Positions 2,952 through 29,022 are shown, counted from the first letter of the stretch. The stretch: DNA of 64,000 nt from Escherichia coli (GCF_003334405.1 NZ_QOWM01000005.1), one strand, 5' to 3'. Numbers and translations: made by a program. Notes: generated by a model not told the origin, from the sequence alone.

Positions 2952-4015
2952 TGTACGTTGCCGTGAAAGGGGGCGAGAAGGCGATCGACGCCGCCCACGC
3001 CCTGCAAGAGAGCCGACGCCGAGGCGATACCGATTTGCCCGAACTGAGCGTCGCCCAGATTGAACAGCAGCTTAACCTCGCGGTAGATCGCGTGATGACC
3101 GAAGGCGGCATTGCCGACCGCGAACTGGCGGCGCTGGCGCTGAAACAGGCCAGCGGCGATAACGTTGAAGCGATTTTCCTGCTGCGCGCCTACCGCACCA
3201 CGTTGGCGAAGCTGGCGGTAAGCGAGCCGCTCGACACCACCGGGATGCGTCTCGAACGCCGTATCTCCGCCGTTTATAAAGACATTCCCGGCGGCCAGCT
3301 GCTTGGCCCAACCTACGACTACACCCATCGCCTGCTCGATTTTACCCTGCTGGCAAACGGCGAAGCGCCGACGCTGACCACCGCCGACAGCGAACAGCAG
3401 CCGTCGCCGCACGTTTTCAGCCTGCTGGCGCGTCAGGGGCTGGCGAAGTTTGAAGAGGATAGCGGCGCACAGCCGGATGACATCACCCGCACGCCGCCGG
3501 TTTACCCCTGCTCACGCTCCTCCCGTTTGCAGCAGTTGATGCGCGGCGACGAAGGCTATTTGCTGGCGCTGGCCTACTCCACCCAACGCGGTTACGGGCG
3601 CAATCACCCGTTCGCAGGCGAGATCCGCAGCGGCTATATCGACGTGTCGATTGTGCCGGAAGAGCTGGGATTTGCGGTGAACGTCGGCGAACTGCTGATG
3701 ACTGAGTGTGAAATGGTTAACGGTTTTATCGACCCGCCGGGTGAGCCGCCGCACTTCACGCGCGGCTACGGGCTGGTGTTCGGCATGAGCGAGCGCAAAG
3801 CGATGGCGATGGCGCTGGTCGACCGCGCTCTGCAAGCCCCGGAGTACGGCGAGCACGCGACAGGCCCGGCGCAGGATGAAGAGTTCGTGCTGGCACATGC
3901 CGACAACGTCGAAGCCGCAGGCTTTGTCTCACACCTCAAACTCCCCCACTACGTCGATTTCCAGGCCGAACTGGAGCTACTCAAACGTCTGCAACAGGAG
4001 CAGAACCATGGCTAA
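2951..4015 (+). CDS. phnI: C-P lyase core complex subunit PhnI
   Basis: ORF 2831..4015 trimmed to ATG at 2951 ([16 protein letters not shown]...), 354 aa; overlaps phnH stop (TGATG). Confidence 0.92.
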   Translation: MYVAVKGGEKAIDAAHALQESRRRGDTDLPELSVAQIEQQLNLAVDRVMTEGGIADRELAALALKQASGDNVEAIFLLRAYRTTLAKLAVSEPLDTTGMRLERRISAVYKDIPGGQLLGPTYDYTHRLLDFTLLANGEAPTLTTADSEQQPSPHVFSLLARQGLAKFEEDSGAQPDDITRTPPVYPCSRSSRLQQLMRGDEGYLLALAYSTQRGYGRNHPFAGEIRSGYIDVSIVPEELGFAVNVGELLMTECEMVNGFIDPPGEPPHFTRGYGLVFGMSERKAMAMALVDRALQAPEYGEHATGPAQDEEFVLAHADNVEAAGFVSHLKLPHYVDFQAELELLKRLQQEQNHG

Positions 4016-4853
4016 TCTGAGCGGCTACAACTTTGCCTACCTCGACGAGCAGACCAAACGCATGATCCGCCGCGCCATCTTAAAAGCGGTGGCGATCCCC
4101 GGTTATCAGGTGCCGTTTGGCGGGCGCGAGATGCCGATGCCGTACGGCTGGGGAACCGGCGGCATTCAGCTTACCGCCAGCGTGATTGGCGAAAGCGACG
4201 TGCTGAAGGTGATTGACCAGGGCGCGGATGACACCACCAACGCCGTGTCGATTCGCAACTTCTTCAAGCGCGTGACCGGGGTAAACACCACGGAACGTAC
4301 GGACGATGCGACGGTTATCCAGACGCGTCACCGCATCCCCGAAACGCCGCTGACCGAAGATCAGATAATTATCTTCCAGGTGCCAATCCCCGAGCCGCTG
4401 CGCTTTATCGAGCCGCGCGAAACGGAAACCCGCACCATGCACGCGCTGGAAGAGTACGGCGTGATGCAGGTGAAACTGTATGAAGATATCGCCCGCTTCG
4501 GTCATATCGCCACCACCTACGCCTATCCGGTGAAGGTAAATGGGCGCTACGTGATGGACCCGTCGCCGATCCCGAAATTCGATAACCCAAAAATGGACAT
4601 GATGCCCGCCCTGCAACTGTTCGGCGCGGGGCGCGAGAAGCGCATCTATGCGGTGCCGCCGTTTACCCGCGTGGAAAGTCTCGATTTCGACGATCACCCG
4701 TTCACCGTTCAGCAGTGGGATGAGCCATGCGCCATCTGCGGATCGACCCACAGCTATCTTGATGAAGTGGTGCTGGATGACGCCGGAAACCGCATGTTTG
4801 TCTGCTCCGATACCGATTATTGCCGCCAACAGAGCGAGGCAAAAAACCAATGA
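4008..4853 (+). CDS. phnJ: C-P lyase PhnJ (radical SAM-type C-P bond cleaving subunit)
   Basis: ORF 3876..4853 trimmed to ATG at 4008 (MANLSGYNFAYLDEQTK...), 281 aa; C-terminal CX2CX21CX5C cysteine cluster. Confidence 0.92.
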   Translation: MANLSGYNFAYLDEQTKRMIRRAILKAVAIPGYQVPFGGREMPMPYGWGTGGIQLTASVIGESDVLKVIDQGADDTTNAVSIRNFFKRVTGVNTTERTDDATVIQTRHRIPETPLTEDQIIIFQVPIPEPLRFIEPRETETRTMHALEEYGVMQVKLYEDIARFGHIATTYAYPVKVNGRYVMDPSPIPKFDNPKMDMMPALQLFGAGREKRIYAVPPFTRVESLDFDDHPFTVQQWDEPCAICGSTHSYLDEVVLDDAGNRMFVCSDTDYCRQQSEAKNQ

Positions 4854-5610: not shown

Positions 5611-5700
<90 letters not shown>

Positions 5701-5718: not shown

Positions 5719-6399
5719 ATGATTAACGTACAAAACGTCAGTAAAACCTTCATCCTGCACCAGCAAAACGGCGTGCGCCTGCCCGTCCTCAATCGCGCCT
5801 CGCTCACCGTCAACGCGGGCGAATGCGTGGTGCTCCACGGCCATTCCGGCAGCGGCAAATCAACTCTGCTACGCTCGCTGTACGCCAACTATCTGCCCGA
5901 CGAAGGTCAAATCCAGATCAAACACGGTGACGAGTGGGTAGACCTGGTCACCGCGCCAGCGCGCAAAGTGGTGGAAATCCGCAAAACCACCGTCGGCTGG
6001 GTGAGCCAGTTTCTGCGCGTCATCCCGCGTATCTCAGCACTGGAAGTGGTGATGCAGCCGCTGCTCGATACCGGCGTTCCGCGTGAAGCCTGCGCCGCTA
6101 AAGCCGCGCGTCTTCTCACCCGCCTGAACGTGCCGGAACGCCTGTGGCACCTGGCACCATCGACATTTTCCGGTGGCGAACAGCAGCGCGTCAACATCGC
6201 CCGCGGCTTTATCGTCGACTACCCCATTCTGCTGCTTGACGAACCTACCGCCTCGCTGGACGCCAAAAACAGCGCCGCGGTGGTGGAACTGATTCGCGAA
6301 GCCAAAACCCGTGGCGCAGCCATCGTAGGCATCTTCCATGACGAAGCTGTACGTAATGACGTCGCCGACCGCCTGCACCCAATGGGAGCCTCTTCATGA
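5719..6399 (+). CDS. phnL: ABC-type ATPase-like C-P lyase accessory protein PhnL
   Basis: ORF 5605..6399 trimmed to ATG 5719 ([15 protein letters not shown]...), 226 aa; Walker [10 protein letters not shown]; upstream part of ORF is REP sequence. Confidence 0.92.
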
Positions 6400-24247: not shown

Positions 24248-26395
24248 ATGAAAAAAGTCGTCACGGTTTGCCCCTATTGCGCATCAGGTTGCAAAATCAA
24301 CCTGGTCGTCGATAACGGCAAAATCGTCCGGGCGGAGGCAGCGCAGGGGAAAACCAACCAGGGTACCCTGTGTCTGAAGGGTTATTATGGCTGGGACTTC
24401 ATTAACGATACCCAGATCCTGACCCCGCGCCTGAAAACCCCCATGATCCGTCGCCAGCGTGGCGGCAAACTCGAACCTGTTTCCTGGGATGAGGCACTGA
24501 ATTACGTTGCCGAGCGCCTGAGCGCCATCAAAGAGAAGTACGGTCCGGATGCCATCCAGACGACCGGCTCCTCGCGTGGTACGGGTAACGAAACCAACTA
24601 TGTAATGCAAAAATTTGCGCGCGCCGTTATTGGTACCAATAACGTTGACTGCTGCGCTCGTGTCTGACACGGCCCATCGGTTGCAGGTCTGCACCAATCG
24701 GTCGGTAATGGCGCAATGAGCAATGCTATTAACGAAATTGATAATACCGATTTAGTGTTCGTTTTCGGGTACAACCCGGCGGATTCCCACCCAATCGTGG
24801 CGAATCACGTAATTAACGCTAAACGTAACGGGGCGAAAATTATCGTCTGCGATCCGCGCAAAATTGAAACCGCGCGCATTGCTGACATGCACATTGCACT
24901 GAAAAACGGCTCGAACATCGCGCTGTTGAATGCGATGGGCCATGTCATTATTGAAGAAAATCTGTACGACAAAGCGTTCGTCGCTTCACGTACAGAAGGC
25001 TTTGAAGAGTATCGTAAAATCGTTGAAGGCTACACGCCGGAGTCGGTTGAAGATATCACCGGCGTCAGCGCCAGTGAGATTCGTCAGGCGGCACGGATGT
25101 ATGCCCAGGCGAAAAGCGCCGCCATCCTGTGGGGCATGGGTGTAACCCAGTTCTACCAGGGCGTGGAAACCGTGCGTTCTCTGACCAGCCTCGCGATGCT
25201 GACCGGTAACCTCGGTAAGCCGCATGCGGGTGTTAACCCGGTTCGTGGTCAGAACAACGTTCAGGGTGCCTGCGATATGGGCGCGCTGCCGGATACGTAT
25301 CCGGGATACCAGTACGTGAAAGATCCGGCTAACCGCGAGAAATTCGCCAAAGCCTGGGGCGTGGAAAGCCTGCCAGCGCATACCGGCTATCGCATCAGCG
25401 AGCTGCCGCACCGCGCAGCGCATGGCGAAGTGCGTGCCGCGTACATTATGGGCGAAGATCCGCTACAAACTGACGCGGAGCTGTCGGCAGTACGTAAAGC
25501 CTTTGAAGATCTGGAACTGGTTATCGTTCAGGACATCTTTATGACCAAAACCGCGTCGGCGGCGGATGTTATTTTACCGTCAACGTCGTGGGGCGAGCAT
25601 GAAGGCGTGTTTACTGCGGCTGACCGTGGCTTCCAGCGTTTCTTCAAGGCGGTTGAACCGAAATGGGATCTGAAAACGGACTGGCAAATCATCAGTGAAA
25701 TCGCCACCCGTATGGGTTATCCGATGCACTACAACAACACCCAGGAGATCTGGGATGAGTTGCGTCATCTGTGCCCGGATTTCTACGGTGCGACTTACGA
25801 GAAAATGGGCGAACTGGGCTTCATTCAGTGGCCTTGCCGCGATACTTCAGATGCCGATCAGGGGACTTCTTATCTGTTTAAAGAGAAGTTTGATACCCCG
25901 AACGGTCTGGCGCAGTTCTTCACCTGCGACTGGGTAGCGCCAATCGACAAACTCACCGACGAGTACCCGATGGTACTGTCAACGGTGCGTGAAGTTGGTC
26001 ACTACTCTTGCCGTTCGATGACCGGTAACTGTGCGGCACTGGCGGCGCTGGCTGATGAACCTGGCTACGCACAAATCAATACCGAAGACGCCAAACGTCT
26101 GGGTATTGAAGATGAGGCATTGGTTTGGGTGCACTCGCGTAAAGGCAAAATTATCACCCGTGCGCAGGTCAGCGATCGTCCGAACAAAGGGGCGATTTAC
26201 ATGACCTACCAGTGGTGGATTGGTGCCTGTAACGAGCTGGTTACTGAAAACTTAAGCCCGATTACGAAAACGCCGGAGTACAAATACTGCGCCGTTCGCG
26301 TCGAGCCGATCGCCGATCAGCGCGCCGCCGAGCAGTACGTGATTGACGAGTACAACAAGTTGAAAACTCGCCTGCGCGAAGCGGCACTGGCGTAA
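24248..26395 (+). CDS. fdhF: Formate dehydrogenase H (selenocysteine/molybdopterin enzyme); in-frame UGA at 24665-24667 decoded as Sec
   Basis: ORFs 24248..24667 and 24716..26395 are in the same frame, separated only by TGA; combined 715 aa; N-terminal CPYCASGC Fe-S motif; SECIS hairpin follows the TGA. Confidence 0.93.
24665..24710 (+). other. SECIS element (selenocysteine insertion stem-loop) immediately 3' of the UGA
   Basis: tgacacggcccatcggttgcaggtctgcaccaatcggtcggtaatggc, stem-loop directly downstream of in-frame TGA. Confidence 0.8.
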
Positions 26396-26488: not shown

Positions 26489-27178
26489 ATGAAAAAAATT
26501 ATCGCATTGATGTTGTTTTTGACATTCTTTGCCCACGCCAACGACTCCGAGCCTGGCAGCCAGTATTTAAAGGCAGCAGAGGCCGGGGACCGACGCGCAC
26601 AATATTTTCTTGCCGACAGCTGGTTTAGCTCCGGCGATTTGAGCAAAGCCGAATATTGGGCACAGAAAGCCGCCGACAGCGGTGATGCTGATGCCTGCGC
26701 GCTGCTGGCGCAGATCAAAATCACCAATCCGGTCAGTCTGGACTATCCACAAGCAAAAGTTCTTGCAGAGAAAGCGGCGCAAGCGGGCAGTAAAGAAGGT
26801 GAAGTAACGCTGGCGCATATTCTGGTAAATACTCAAGCGGGTAAACCGGATTATCCAAAGGCAATTTCGCTGTTAGAAAACGCCTCGGAAGATCTGGAGA
26901 ACGACTCTGCCGTCGATGCCCAAATGCTGCTTGGTTTGATTTACGCCAACGGCGTGGGCATTAAGGCCGACGATGACAAGGCAACCTGGTATTTCAAACG
27001 CAGCTCTGCAATTTCCCGAACCGGTTATTCCGAGTACTGGGCGGGAATGATGTTCTTAAACGGTGAAGAAGGTTTTATCGAGAAGAACAAGCAAAAGGCG
27101 CTGCACTGGTTGAACCTGAGCTGTATGGAAGGGTTTGATACCGGGTGTGAAGAGTTTGAAAAATTAACCAACGGTTAA
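26489..27178 (+). CDS. yjcO: Sel1-like repeat periplasmic protein YjcO
   Basis: 229-aa ORF with signal peptide and repeated AxxWxxKAA(D/E)xG Sel1/TPR-like units. Confidence 0.88.
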   Translation: MKKIIALMLFLTFFAHANDSEPGSQYLKAAEAGDRRAQYFLADSWFSSGDLSKAEYWAQKAADSGDADACALLAQIKITNPVSLDYPQAKVLAEKAAQAGSKEGEVTLAHILVNTQAGKPDYPKAISLLENASEDLENDSAVDAQMLLGLIYANGVGIKADDDKATWYFKRSSAISRTGYSEYWAGMMFLNGEEGFIEKNKQKALHWLNLSCMEGFDTGCEEFEKLTNG

Positions 27179-27180
27179 GA

Positions 27181-27672
27181 TAGGCCTGATAAGACGCGGC
27201 AAGCGTCGCATCAGGCATTGATGTCGGATGCGGCGTAAACGCCTTATCCGACCTACAAAATCACGCTAAATCAGGCTATTGCGCTGTCTGGCGTAGGCCT
27301 GATAAGACGCGTTAAGCGTCGCATCAGGCGTTGATGTCGGATGCGGCATAAACGCCTTATCCGACCTACAAAATCACGCTAAATCAGGCTATTGCGCTGT
27401 CTGGCGTAGGCCTGATAAGACGCGGCAAGCGTCGCATCAGGCGTTGATGTCGGATGCGGCGTAAACGCCTTATCCGACCTACAAAATCACGCTAAATCAG
27501 GCTATTGCGCTGTCTGGCGTAGGCCTGATAAGACGCGTTAAGCGTCGCATCAGGCGTTGATGTCGGATGCGGCATAAACGCCTTATCCGACCTACAAAAT
27601 CACGCTAAATCAGGCTATTGCGCTGTCTGGCGTAGGCCTGATAAGACGCGGCAAGCGTCGCATCAGGCATTC
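27181..27672. repeat. Tandem REP/BIME array: about 4.3 copies of a 113-bp unit
   Basis: Unit starts (taggcctgataagacgcg) at 27181, 27294, 27407, 27520, 27633; each unit holds two inverted REP palindromes; copies differ at a few positions. Confidence 0.9.
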
Positions 27673-27708
27673 ACACATTGCCGGGTGGATATCCCCGGCA
27701 ATCTTCAA

Positions 27709-29022
27709 TTATTGATCCGCAGTTTTATCAAATTTGCCCAGCACTTCACGCTCATAAGCCAGCGCTTTCTTACGGTCAAATTTGTGTTCCCACTTGGCAA
27801 TCACCAGCACCGCCAGCGCATTACCCACCACGTTCAGCGCAGTACGCGCCATGTCGAGGATACGGTCAACACCAGCAATAAACGCCAGACCTTCCAGCGG
27901 AATACCTACGCTACCCAGCGTTGCCAGCAACACCACAAACGACACGCCAGGCACGCCAGCAATCCCTTTCGAGGTCACCATCAGCGTCAGCACCAGAATG
28001 ATTTCCTGCCAGATGGACAGGTCAATGCCATACAACTGCGCGATGAAGATAGCGGCAATACTTTGATACAGCGTCGAACCATCAAGGTTAAAAGAGTAAC
28101 CGGTCGGCACCACGAAACTGGTGATCGACGCCGGTGCTCCGTAGGCTTCCATCTTCTCAATAATTCGCGGCAGCACGCTTTCAGAGCTGGCAGTGGAGTA
28201 CGCCAGAATCAGCTCATCTTTCAGAATACGAATCAGGATCCAGACGCTTAACCCGCACAGGCGCGCCACAATTCCCAGCACTACCAGCGCGAAGAACAGA
28301 ATGGCGAAATGCACCAGCAGCACCAGTTTCGCCAGTGGCCACAGAGACGAGAAACCAAAGTTAGCCACCGTCACCGCAATCAGCGCAAACACACCCACCG
28401 GTGCATAACGCATCACCATGTGAGTCACTTTAAACATGGTTTCAGAGATGGAGCGGAACACGGTCACCAGCGGTTCACGATGCGTCGCGGGCAGGGAAGA
28501 AAGCCCCAGACCAAACAGCACCGAGAAAAAGATGATCGGCAGCATTTCGCCTTTCGCCATCGACGCCACAATGTTCGTCGGCACCAGCGACAAAATCGTG
28601 CCCATAATGCCGTGGGAACTGCTTTGTACCGCTTCCGTAGTGCTCTGATATTTCGAGATATCGACGGTCGCCAACTGCGACATATCCACCCCGGCACCGG
28701 GCTGGAAGACGTTCGCCAGAGTGATCCCCAAAATGATGGCGACGGTGGTGATCACCTCGAAGTAGATAATGGTTTTCGCGCCAATACGCCCGAGCTGTTT
28801 GGCATCACCAACACCCGCGATACCCACCACCAGCGTGGAGATCACAATCGGCACAACAATCATTTTAATCAGATGGATGAAGATATCACCCGCCGGAGAG
28901 AGCAAATTGACGACCAGCCAGTCGCGGCTGTCGCTATGGTAGTGCAGGTAGCTTCCCAGGAGAATGCCCAGCACCATAGCAAACAGAATCTGCCAGGCCA
29001 GGCTGAATTTTATATTTTTCAT
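27709..29022 (-). CDS. gltP: Glutamate/aspartate:proton symporter
   Basis: 437-aa ORF MKNIKFSLAWQILFAMVLGILLG...; DAACS family. Confidence 0.93.
   Translation of the reverse strand: MKNIKFSLAWQILFAMVLGILLGSYLHYHSDSRDWLVVNLLSPAGDIFIHLIKMIVVPIVISTLVVGIAGVGDAKQLGRIGAKTIIYFEVITTVAIILGITLANVFQPGAGVDMSQLATVDISKYQSTTEAVQSSSHGIMGTILSLVPTNIVASMAKGEMLPIIFFSVLFGLGLSSLPATHREPLVTVFRSISETMFKVTHMVMRYAPVGVFALIAVTVANFGFSSLWPLAKLVLLVHFAILFFALVVLGIVARLCGLSVWILIRILKDELILAYSTASSESVLPRIIEKMEAYGAPASITSFVVPTGYSFNLDGSTLYQSIAAIFIAQLYGIDLSIWQEIILVLTLMVTSKGIAGVPGVSFVVLLATLGSVGIPLEGLAFIAGVDRILDMARTALNVVGNALAVLVIAKWEHKFDRKKALAYEREVLGKFDKTADQ

Follow-up and report, generated by a model that had tools for sequence, protein, structure and literature searches.

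The yjcO–gltP intergenic region

The window analyzed here, a 64,000-nt stretch of Escherichia coli DNA (GCF_003334405.1, NZ_QOWM01000005.1), carries a tandem array of palindromic repeats in the intergenic region between yjcO and gltP, two genes that converge upon it. yjcO, which encodes a Sel1/TPR repeat protein, lies on the + strand at 26489-27178, and gltP, which encodes the glutamate/aspartate:proton symporter, lies on the − strand at 27709-29022. Both genes were identified from the ORF list and from RefSeq annotation on identical DNA, and the pair carries this RefSeq annotation in thousands of E. coli genomes whose DNA is the same or nearly so. The gltP product scores 905.6 bits against the NCBIfam equivalog NF008440, for which the cut-off is 638. 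A sequence-only reading of this DNA had placed the array between convergent yjcO and gltP, a position that the ORF list, the RefSeq annotation, and the NCBIfam score all bear out. The annotated neighbors of the array are fdhF, yjcO, gltP, and nrfG, with no cas gene among them.

The intergenic region of the window is 530 nt long. A consensus scan for intrinsic terminators, consisting of a GC-rich hairpin and a U-tract, found no site within 27179-27708 on either strand, and no T runs directly follow the hairpins of the array. Six nucleotides downstream of the gltP stop codon, folding revealed a GC-rich stem-loop that is not a REP (TTGCCGGG...CCCGGCAA, 27677-27702), with an energy of −18.1 kcal/mol on the − strand, the strand of gltP, and −15.4 kcal/mol on the + strand. 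The stem of this structure is identical in all 15 loci examined, and no U-tract follows it on either strand. Coding potential within the array was limited to ORFs of 21-32 aa and a 47-aa ORF overlapping the end of yjcO, and was rejected.

Anatomy of the array

Tandem Repeats Finder delineated the array at 27181-27668, with a period of 113, 4.3 copies, 96% matches, no indels, and a score of 927, while a second, independent repeat finder returned start-to-start spacings of 113, 113, and 113. Splitting the intergenic region at each TAGGCCTGATAAG placed the starts of the full units at 27181, 27294, 27407, and 27520 and the start of a terminal partial unit of 36 nt at 27633. The array as a whole, to which no strand is assigned, consists of four full 113-nt units plus a terminal Z2, or nine palindromic units. 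This dissection reproduced the 113-bp spacing and every one of the five starts given by the sequence-only reading, as well as the beginning of its span; the end of that span, 27672, was set too far, since the repeat stops at 27668 and the final four bases are unique sequence.

Each full unit comprises, in order, a 36-nt palindrome of the Z2 type (TAGGCCTGATAAGACGCGGCAAGCGTCGCATCAGGC), a 6-nt head-to-head linker, a 34-nt palindrome of the Y type in the opposite orientation (GTCGGATGCGGCGTAAACGCCTTATCCGACCTAC), and a 37-nt tail-to-tail linker (AAAATCACGCTAAATCAGGCTATTGCGCTGTCTGGCG). The Z2 units, located by unit dissection, REP signatures, covariance-model alignment, and folding, lie at 27181-27216, 27294-27329, 27407-27442, 27520-27555, and 27633-27668. 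The Y units, of subtype GTCGGAT...ATCCGAC and inverted relative to Z2, lie at 27223-27256, 27336-27369, 27449-27482, and 27562-27595. Head-to-head linkers occupy 27217-27222, where the sequence is ATTGAT (unit 1), and 27330-27335, 27443-27448, and 27556-27561, where it is GTTGAT (units 2-4); tail-to-tail linkers, delimited by unit dissection and folding, occupy 27257-27293, 27370-27406, 27483-27519, and 27596-27632. REP signatures fall on the − strand for Z2 and on the + strand for Y, alternating throughout 27180-27668, and each palindromic unit carries a GTAG/CTAC tetranucleotide (ATAG at the first), with internal mismatches in the stems. Signature search, folding, and covariance-model alignment all agree with the initial description of two inverted REP palindromes per unit.

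The copies differ in small variants, which had been described as alternating. This holds for gcggcaag and gcgttaag, the Z2 loop being GGCAA in the odd-numbered units (1, 3, and 5) and GTTAA in the even-numbered ones (2 and 4), but not for ggcatt and ggcgtt, since units 2-4 all read ggcgtt and ggcatt is limited to the first unit and the terminal partial one. A third variant lies in the Y hairpin, whose loop-closing pair has either G or A (gcggcGtaaac or gcggcAtaaac), and it travels with the gcggcaag/gcgttaag variant. Because the Y-hairpin and Z2-loop variants are linked, the array reads A-B-A'-B-a, with a higher-order period of 226 nt. The possibility of the 37-nt linker being the remnant of a third REP was considered and found no support, its local alignment being no better than that of shuffled sequences (p about 0.06-0.07 against Z2 and ≥0.6 against Y); the only sequence common to the linker and the REP units in these alignments is ATCAGGC.

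Identity with REP321

The array is the already catalogued E. coli REP cluster REP321, an ordinary and well-described element. EcoCyc names the gltP–yjcO array REP321a-k, with 11 palindromic units in MG1655, and its MG1655 coordinates are given as 4295836-4296435 (supplement, bioRxiv 10.64898/2026.03.23.713779). The window and MG1655 share the locus, the flanking genes, and the sequences of the units. They differ in that the window has one B unit fewer, that is, 4.3 copies and 9 palindromic units versus 5.3 copies and 11, and in that it carries a CG dinucleotide in the Y loop of unit 1 that is absent from the MG1655 reference. W3110 and BW25113 have the 530-nt intergenic region of the window, which is 99.9% identical, not 100%, to W3110 across the array region.

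The locus appears repeatedly in the literature. Part of the gltP–yjcO BIME was used by Ton-Hoang 2012, as oligonucleotide B319, as a substrate for TnpA-REP, which cuts it in vitro at four sites mapped in the linker (PMC3333891). Resequencing of MG1655 yielded two calls in the yjcO–gltP intergenic region, a recurrent “+CG at 4,296,380” at a frequency of 1.0 and a C-to-T change at 4,296,060 at partial frequency (PMC4330922). The recurrent call is explained by the MG1655 reference itself, whose unit 1 has gcggtaaacgcc where every other strain has gcggCGtaaacgcc. An insertion between yjcO and gltP was reported in 34 of 35 isolates (PMC6120903), and part of REP321 is deleted in the J53 genome relative to MG1655 (PMC5968721). 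In a 2024 mobilome preprint, REP321 is one of eight REP clusters whose coverage rises in exonuclease-treated DNA under stress, and it is predicted to be a RAYT-associated REPIN.

Hairpins and the naRNA4 family

Folding of the individual elements predicts hairpins on both strands, with energies of −20.4 kcal/mol (+) and −21.3 kcal/mol (−) for Z2 and −19.2 and −17.4 kcal/mol, respectively, for Y, while the 37-nt linker forms a weak third hairpin (−10.0 and −8.5 kcal/mol). Base pairing in the first Z2 hairpin begins 5 nt beyond the yjcO stop codon (TAA, 27176-27178), as determined by folding 27176-27220. When the array region was compared with shuffled sequences, z-scores of −14.5 and −10.2 were obtained on the two strands, and none of 100 shuffles folded as well. 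The Tandem Repeats Finder score and the fold z-scores on both strands together exclude chance as the origin of the array.

All four full units matched Rfam family RF02564 (naRNA4, a Y-linker-Z2 pair) on the − strand, sense to gltP, at 27183-27253, 27296-27366, 27409-27479, and 27522-27592, with scores of 79.0, 71.4, 77.1, and 71.4 bits, respectively, against a gathering score of 59.5 bits. On the + strand, the array reaches 44-49 bits, below the gathering score. In the cmscan alignments, both palindromes follow the model's Y and Z2 hairpins at nearly every base, and the head-to-head linker of the array appears as a 7-nt deletion relative to the linker of the model. RF02564 also matches ordinary single BIMEs elsewhere in the window, at 285-365 and 38128-38198. 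A match to this family therefore marks the Y-Z2 pair, not a function.

Covariation was assessed in the three hairpins across 17 distinct units from 11 loci. No pair had changed on both sides, and the observed values equaled those of shuffles in this set, whose units are too similar to one another to be informative; the stem changes that are seen among the 17 units break pairs. With no compensatory changes among them, evolution within the locus lends no independent support to selection on the hairpins.

Copy-number variation at the locus

REP321 is a copy-number polymorphism, with E. coli alleles that range from 0 to about 7 units, although part of the differences could be an artefact of assemblies that may have collapsed a 500-800-nt repeat. 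Variation of this kind among E. coli genomes had been anticipated by the sequence-only reading and is what genome comparison revealed; it is also in keeping with the finding that the tandem BIME count of a locus differs between strains (PMC3333891). A single Z2, located 2 nt past the yjcO stop codon, is present in nearly every E. coli, and in about half of strains the 113-nt block Z2-linker-Y-linker has been amplified there head to tail.

Unit dissection, which covered 13 E. coli loci, resolved a series of alleles. The intergenic allele of 77-78 nt has no full unit, only one Z2 and the gltP-proximal stem-loop, while those of 191, 303, 416, 530, and 641-643 nt have one, two, three, four, and five units, respectively, and the length steps between these six alleles are exact multiples of 113 nt. 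K-12 lines differ among themselves, with 5.3 copies in MG1655 (an intergenic region of 641 nt), 4.3 in W3110 and BW25113, and about 3.3 in DH5alpha, which has three linkers. A second family of alleles, of 147 nt (an APEC strain), 488 nt, and 827 nt (Nissle), is found in B2-type strains, where the first Z2 is degenerate and the terminal Z2 is absent. The O157 unit is 101 nt long, with a 12-nt deletion in the linker.

Intergenic lengths were surveyed with a flank-only query, the ranking of which was sampled evenly to give 58 genomes. About 41% of these (24/58) have the 77-78-nt allele, with a single Z2 only; nine have 529-530 nt, six have 488 nt, five have 174-191 nt and another five 302-304 nt, three have 416 nt, two have 147 nt, and lengths of 260, 643, 713, and 828 nt were found in one genome each. 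Within this survey, 800-nt flanks that are 100% identical enclose intergenic regions of 78, 530, or 643 nt. Differing array lengths between identical flanks indicate that the arrays turn over quickly in comparison with point substitution.

A query consisting of the 37-nt linker alone matched at 6216 places, spread over 2449 of 5426 genomes, with a per-genome median of 2 and no more than 6 in any one; the count of 2449 is a lower bound because the diverged linkers of B2-type strains fall under the word size of the search. The five places found in MG1655 are its five units, and DH5alpha has three. A near-identical linker is missing from the other 2977 genomes. Across the 5426 E. coli genomes the linker is confined to the yjcO–gltP locus, which shows that amplification was local. 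Outside E. coli, an exact-pattern scan of one genome per species detected arrays at yjcO–gltP in two other Escherichia species, Escherichia sp. E1V33, with five units, and E. whittamii, with a 117-nt unit in 1.9 copies. Copies of the unit would be gained and lost locally, either by slippage or unequal recombination between near-identical 113-nt units or through the REP-associated tyrosine transposase TnpA-REP (RAYT), which would cleave the DNA and transfer strands.

A presumed two-way 3'-end element

We interpret REP321 as a BIME-2 cluster in which a Z2-Y block has been amplified locally and which presumably serves as a two-way 3'-end element, a reading to which we assign a probability of roughly 0.85. 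The analogy with the REP325 array and an in-vitro Rho-binding peak make the two-way 3'-end role the most likely function, and termination or 3'-end formation is accordingly the best supported of the functions that the sequence-only reading had offered, while its proposals of gyrase and IHF binding describe properties of the BIME-2 family at large and of BIME-1, respectively. According to the model, the array would be transcribed as the shared 3' untranslated region of yjcO and gltP, and either RNA strand would fold into a row of stable hairpins, each at about −17 to −21 kcal/mol. By stopping 3'-to-5' exonucleases, the hairpins would protect the mRNA upstream of them. A second effect would be to attenuate read-through, termination being completed by Rho on C-rich RNA just past the array, and the proposed outcome is that gltP and yjcO transcription would be kept from colliding.

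This model draws on a 2026 preprint (bioRxiv 10.64898/2026.03.23.713779). There, REP325 was found to stabilize upstream mRNA and to attenuate read-through in a partly Rho-dependent manner; only the full array did so, and fragments of 2-4 hairpins showed no Rho-dependent attenuation. Genome-wide, REPs between convergent genes accompany higher expression of both genes, the effects of REPs having a large variance and a context dependence that the authors stress. Both flanking genes are expressed in MG1655, with baseMean values of 2311 and 606, and an in-vitro Rho-binding peak at MG1655 4296428-4296596 (+), present with and without NusG, is flagged as overlapping REP321 (all bioRxiv 10.64898/2026.03.23.713779). 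Mapped to the window, the peak spans 27018-27186 on the − strand and corresponds to gltP-sense RNA leaving the array, antisense to the 3' end of yjcO. This stretch is C-rich and G-poor, and the C/G ratio is 1.6-2.2 just past the array in both read-through directions. We infer termination, stabilization, and a translational effect at REP321 from REP325 and from these genome-wide correlations.

The translational effect concerns yjcO, whose translation the first Z2 hairpin may lower, given that the hairpin begins 5 nt after the stop codon. REPs that lie no more than 15 nt from a stop codon are reported to reduce translation (Liang et al. 2015, as cited in PMC12306157), and REP321 is listed as falling inside this limit in the 2024 mobilome preprint. 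Such an effect would extend to all alleles, the 0-unit allele included.

Alternative explanations

Against a function of the array, it looks dispensable, the 24 of 58 sampled genomes with a single Z2 and the 2977 of 5426 without a near-identical linker suggesting that extra copies may add little or nothing. It is quite conceivable, at somewhat less than even odds, that RAYT activity or slippage has produced the extra copies as a neutral or selfish by-product, and that the locus is an unstable VNTR with no function beyond that of the ancestral single Z2. The range of 0 to about 7 units without any fixed number, the same 24 genomes that have no full unit, the differences in copy number among laboratory K-12 sublines, and the lack of compensatory changes among units are all consistent with this explanation, as are the in-vitro cleavage of the REP321 linker by TnpA-REP and the published model of BIME amplification (PMC3333891). 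However, that Rho-dependent attenuation is seen with the full REP325 and not with its shorter fragments indicates that copy number can matter, and arrays persist at yjcO–gltP in Escherichia sp. E1V33 and E. whittamii. Neutrality of the extra copies would, moreover, leave room for the whole element to act at 3' ends.

The array has also been considered as a strong site of DNA gyrase binding and cleavage that would act as a topological buffer between convergent transcription units, as proposed for BIME-2, an explanation that we regard as unlikely. BIME-2 elements are enriched in gyrase cleavage sites, chiefly in their Y units and irrespective of transcription (PMC6379681), and REP321 presents four Y units at a position where the positive supercoils of convergent transcription meet. 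The gyrase binding put forward by the sequence-only reading is, however, a property of the BIME-2 family (PMC6379681), and no cleavage site was found for REP321 in particular. The BIME intervals of PMC6379681 include none listed between 4,290,091 and 4,316,815 (W3110 Mu SGS), the interval in which REP321 must lie, and among the entries listed no cleavage coordinate falls at either plausible mapping of REP321, although the test is a weak one for an array whose near-identical reads multi-map. In REP325, the array most similar to REP321, the counts for the four conditions are just 0, 2, 0, and 0 sites (PMC6379681).

A more ambitious version of the 3'-end model, which we consider distinctly improbable, is that copy number is a heritable, fast-switching dial in which each 113-nt unit shifts Rho-dependent read-through and the stability of gltP and/or yjcO mRNA. 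If this were true, the polymorphism of 0-7 units would produce differences between strains in the expression of glutamate/aspartate uptake, those among K-12 sublines included, with promoters and coding sequence unchanged.

We find it very improbable that the gltP 3' UTR is a source of naRNAs, being cut into Y-Z2 RNAs of ~71 nt that bind HU and condense the nucleoid. The four matches over the RF02564 gathering score, which are sense to the upstream gene as in REP325, fit the original naRNA4 model (PMC4550694), but the occurrence of the same match at ordinary single BIMEs in the window shows that it marks the pair and not a function. A later study that includes the original senior author found nucleoid volume to be unchanged by deletion or over-expression of REP325, no stable HU-naRNA4-DNA ternary complex, and no REP-REP contacts in Hi-C (bioRxiv 10.64898/2026.03.23.713779).

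The least credible of the functional proposals is that of an IHF-binding BIME resembling RIP or RIB elements, which the sequence-only reading had also entertained. Each 37-nt linker does contain AATCAGGCTATTG, which fits the relaxed core WATCARNNNNTTR but fails the strict core WATCAANNNNTTR, and the relaxed pattern has eight unrelated matches in 64 kb versus 4 expected; in Nissle-type units, where the sequence is CATCAGG, the match is missing its first base. IHF binding is tied to BIME-1 and its long L linker, BIME-1 containing Y and Z1 in a single copy (PMC3333891), whereas the units of the array combine Y with Z2, have a head-to-head linker of 6 nt, and are multi-copy, and thus do not conform to BIME-1.

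Finally, a CRISPR array, which short palindromes at regular spacing might bring to mind, is excluded, as the sequence-only reading had concluded in favor of a REP/BIME array: the intervening sequences recur with the same fidelity as the palindromes, at 96-100% identity and with no unique spacers, the palindromes are of two different, inverted kinds belonging to the REP Y and Z2 types, and there are no cas neighbors.

Significance

REP321 has been annotated and used as a biochemical substrate, and the family to which it belongs has been described since the 1980s-90s, so the array has little value as a discovery. Its interest is practical. It is a genuine variable-number repeat that gives rise to recurrent variant calls in MG1655, and analysis pipelines should mask it or handle it carefully; in genome scans, it serves well as a negative control for periodic palindromes that resemble CRISPR. 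It also provides a natural allelic series, from 0 to about 7 units between expressed convergent genes, that can be used to test the dual terminator/stabilizer model.

Comparison with known REP systems

BIME-2 elements are defined by Y and Z2 units, a short head-to-head linker, and multiple tandem copies (PMC3333891), and in the Gilson/Bachellier classification the layout of REP321 is of the BIME-2 type. It has Y and Z2 palindromes in alternating orientation, in tandem, in extragenic DNA, and in variable copy number, and its head-to-head linker, judged by its length of 6 nt, is short, unlike the long L linker of BIME-1. Tail-to-tail linkers of BIME-2 are catalogued as s, l, or r motifs; the 37-nt tail-to-tail linker of REP321 is specific to its locus. 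REP321 is missing among the entries listed in the BIME-2 interval table of PMC6379681, and for this reason it may have been classed as an “atypical BIME” in the original catalogue.

The model BIME-2 array is REP325, located between yjdM and yjdN, which is the source of naRNA1-6; its units are labelled Y and Z2 (PMC4550694), and the naRNA4 family RF02564 was modelled on its Y-Z2 pair. As retrieved from MG1655, REP325 has a period of 100 nt and 5.8 copies, with six Y-Z2 pairs. Like REP321, it consists of tandem Y and Z2 units in alternating orientation, with the order Y-linker-Z2 sense to the upstream gene, the copy numbers are comparable, and both arrays score over the RF02564 gathering score. 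The two differ in period (100 versus 113 nt), in the head-to-head linker (13 nt in REP325 versus 6 nt in REP321), and in the tail-to-tail linker, which in REP325 is shorter than the 37 nt of REP321 and unrelated to it in sequence. The Y unit of REP321, GTCGGAT...ATCCGAC, represents a compensated change from a C-G to a U-A pair relative to REP325. The genomic settings are also distinct, REP325 lying between tandem genes of one operon and REP321 between convergent genes.

REP321 further resembles the REPIN/RAYT system, in which TnpA-REP mobilizes REP doublets, in that its paired Z2 and Y palindromes form an inverted REP doublet that carries the GTAG/CTAC tetranucleotide and has mismatches in the stems. 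It differs from that system in that the whole 113-nt unit, linker included, is confined to one locus, the signature of tandem amplification in place and not of dispersal.

Variation in unit length and allele structure

A second family of yjcO-gltP alleles is found in B2-type strains, represented by the Nissle allele (locus L003, positions 3480-4306), two 488-nt alleles (L005 and L010) and one of 147 nt (L011). Members of this family carry from 1 to about 7 copies of the unit, begin with a degenerate, truncated first Z2 palindrome (GGTAGGCGCAGCAAACGTCGC...) and have no terminal Z2, such that the final linker passes straight into ...TCAGGCATCCACACA. Unit length also varies elsewhere: in the O157 strain Al Ain (L009, 680-856) the unit is 101 nt and its long linker has a 12-nt deletion, while in E. 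whittamii (L016, 5991-6218) it is 117 nt, the head-to-head linker being 10 nt (ATTATTGATG...) rather than the usual 6 nt.

Sequence comparison revealed a further variant in the MG1655 reference, where the Y-hairpin loop of unit 1 lacks a CG dinucleotide, reading gcggtaaacgcc in place of the gcggcgtaaacgcc present in the window and in all other strains (about 2373-2385 of the compared locus L001, near 4,296,380 of NC_000913.3, equivalent to window 27232-27245). Because this CG is absent, unit 1 of the reference is 111 nt. Resequencing studies report '+CG 4,296,380' at a frequency of 1.0 (PMC4330922), and the missing dinucleotide corresponds to that call.

Candidate protein-binding sites in and beside the array

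Every 37-nt linker contains AATCAGGCTATTG (27269-27281, 27382-27394, 27495-27507 and 27608-27620, plus strand), which by pattern matching fits the relaxed IHF core WATCARNNNNTTR but fails the strict form WATCAANNNNTTR. Elsewhere in the window, 8 unrelated sequences match the relaxed core where about 4 would be expected; Nissle-type units have lost the linker match.

Binding of Rho in vitro, both with and without NusG, gives a peak at MG1655 4296428-4296596 (bioRxiv 10.64898/2026.03.23.713779). Mapped onto the window, this peak occupies 27018-27186 on the minus (gltP-sense) strand, where it adjoins the end of the array nearer to yjcO. RNA past the array is C-rich and G-poor in both read-through directions (C/G 1.5-2.2).

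The array as a possible junction

In one E. coli line evolved under amoxicillin (epmA-3), a 164-kb ampC amplicon had its boundary in the intergenic region of gltP and yjcO, as did an 86-kb duplicated segment next to it (PMC12625342). The position of this amplicon boundary in one evolved line suggests that recombination junctions can form at the REP321 array.

Array sequence was also observed in an assembly of the myxobacterium Pyxidicoccus caerfyrddinensis, as a 240-nt contig of coverage 0.53 (NZ_JAAIYA010000177.1, L014 1-240). Its entire length is identical to two successive 'B' units, an arrangement known from MG1655-type K-12, and the contig almost certainly reflects laboratory contamination of that assembly with E. 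coli.

Other features of the window

Two expected E. coli features were detected on the plus strand: a SECIS_2 selenocysteine insertion element (24660-24714, 87 bits), upstream of an ORF (24716-26395) that synteny with annotated genomes identifies as fdhF, and the Hfq-binding small RNA sraL (45436-45576, 153 bits). A 188-aa ORF with a GTG start lying antisense within gltP (27685-28251, plus strand) is most likely spurious, falling on the C-rich antisense strand.

The yjcO-gltP locus holds the only tandem REP array in the 64-kb window; the three other REP doublets are single BIMEs (285-365 and 38128-38198, both minus strand, and 5615-5697). Two of the three, 285-365 and 38128-38198, score high enough (69.1 and 84.1 bits) to reach the gathering score of Rfam's naRNA4 model, showing that this model recognises generic Y-Z2 pairs.
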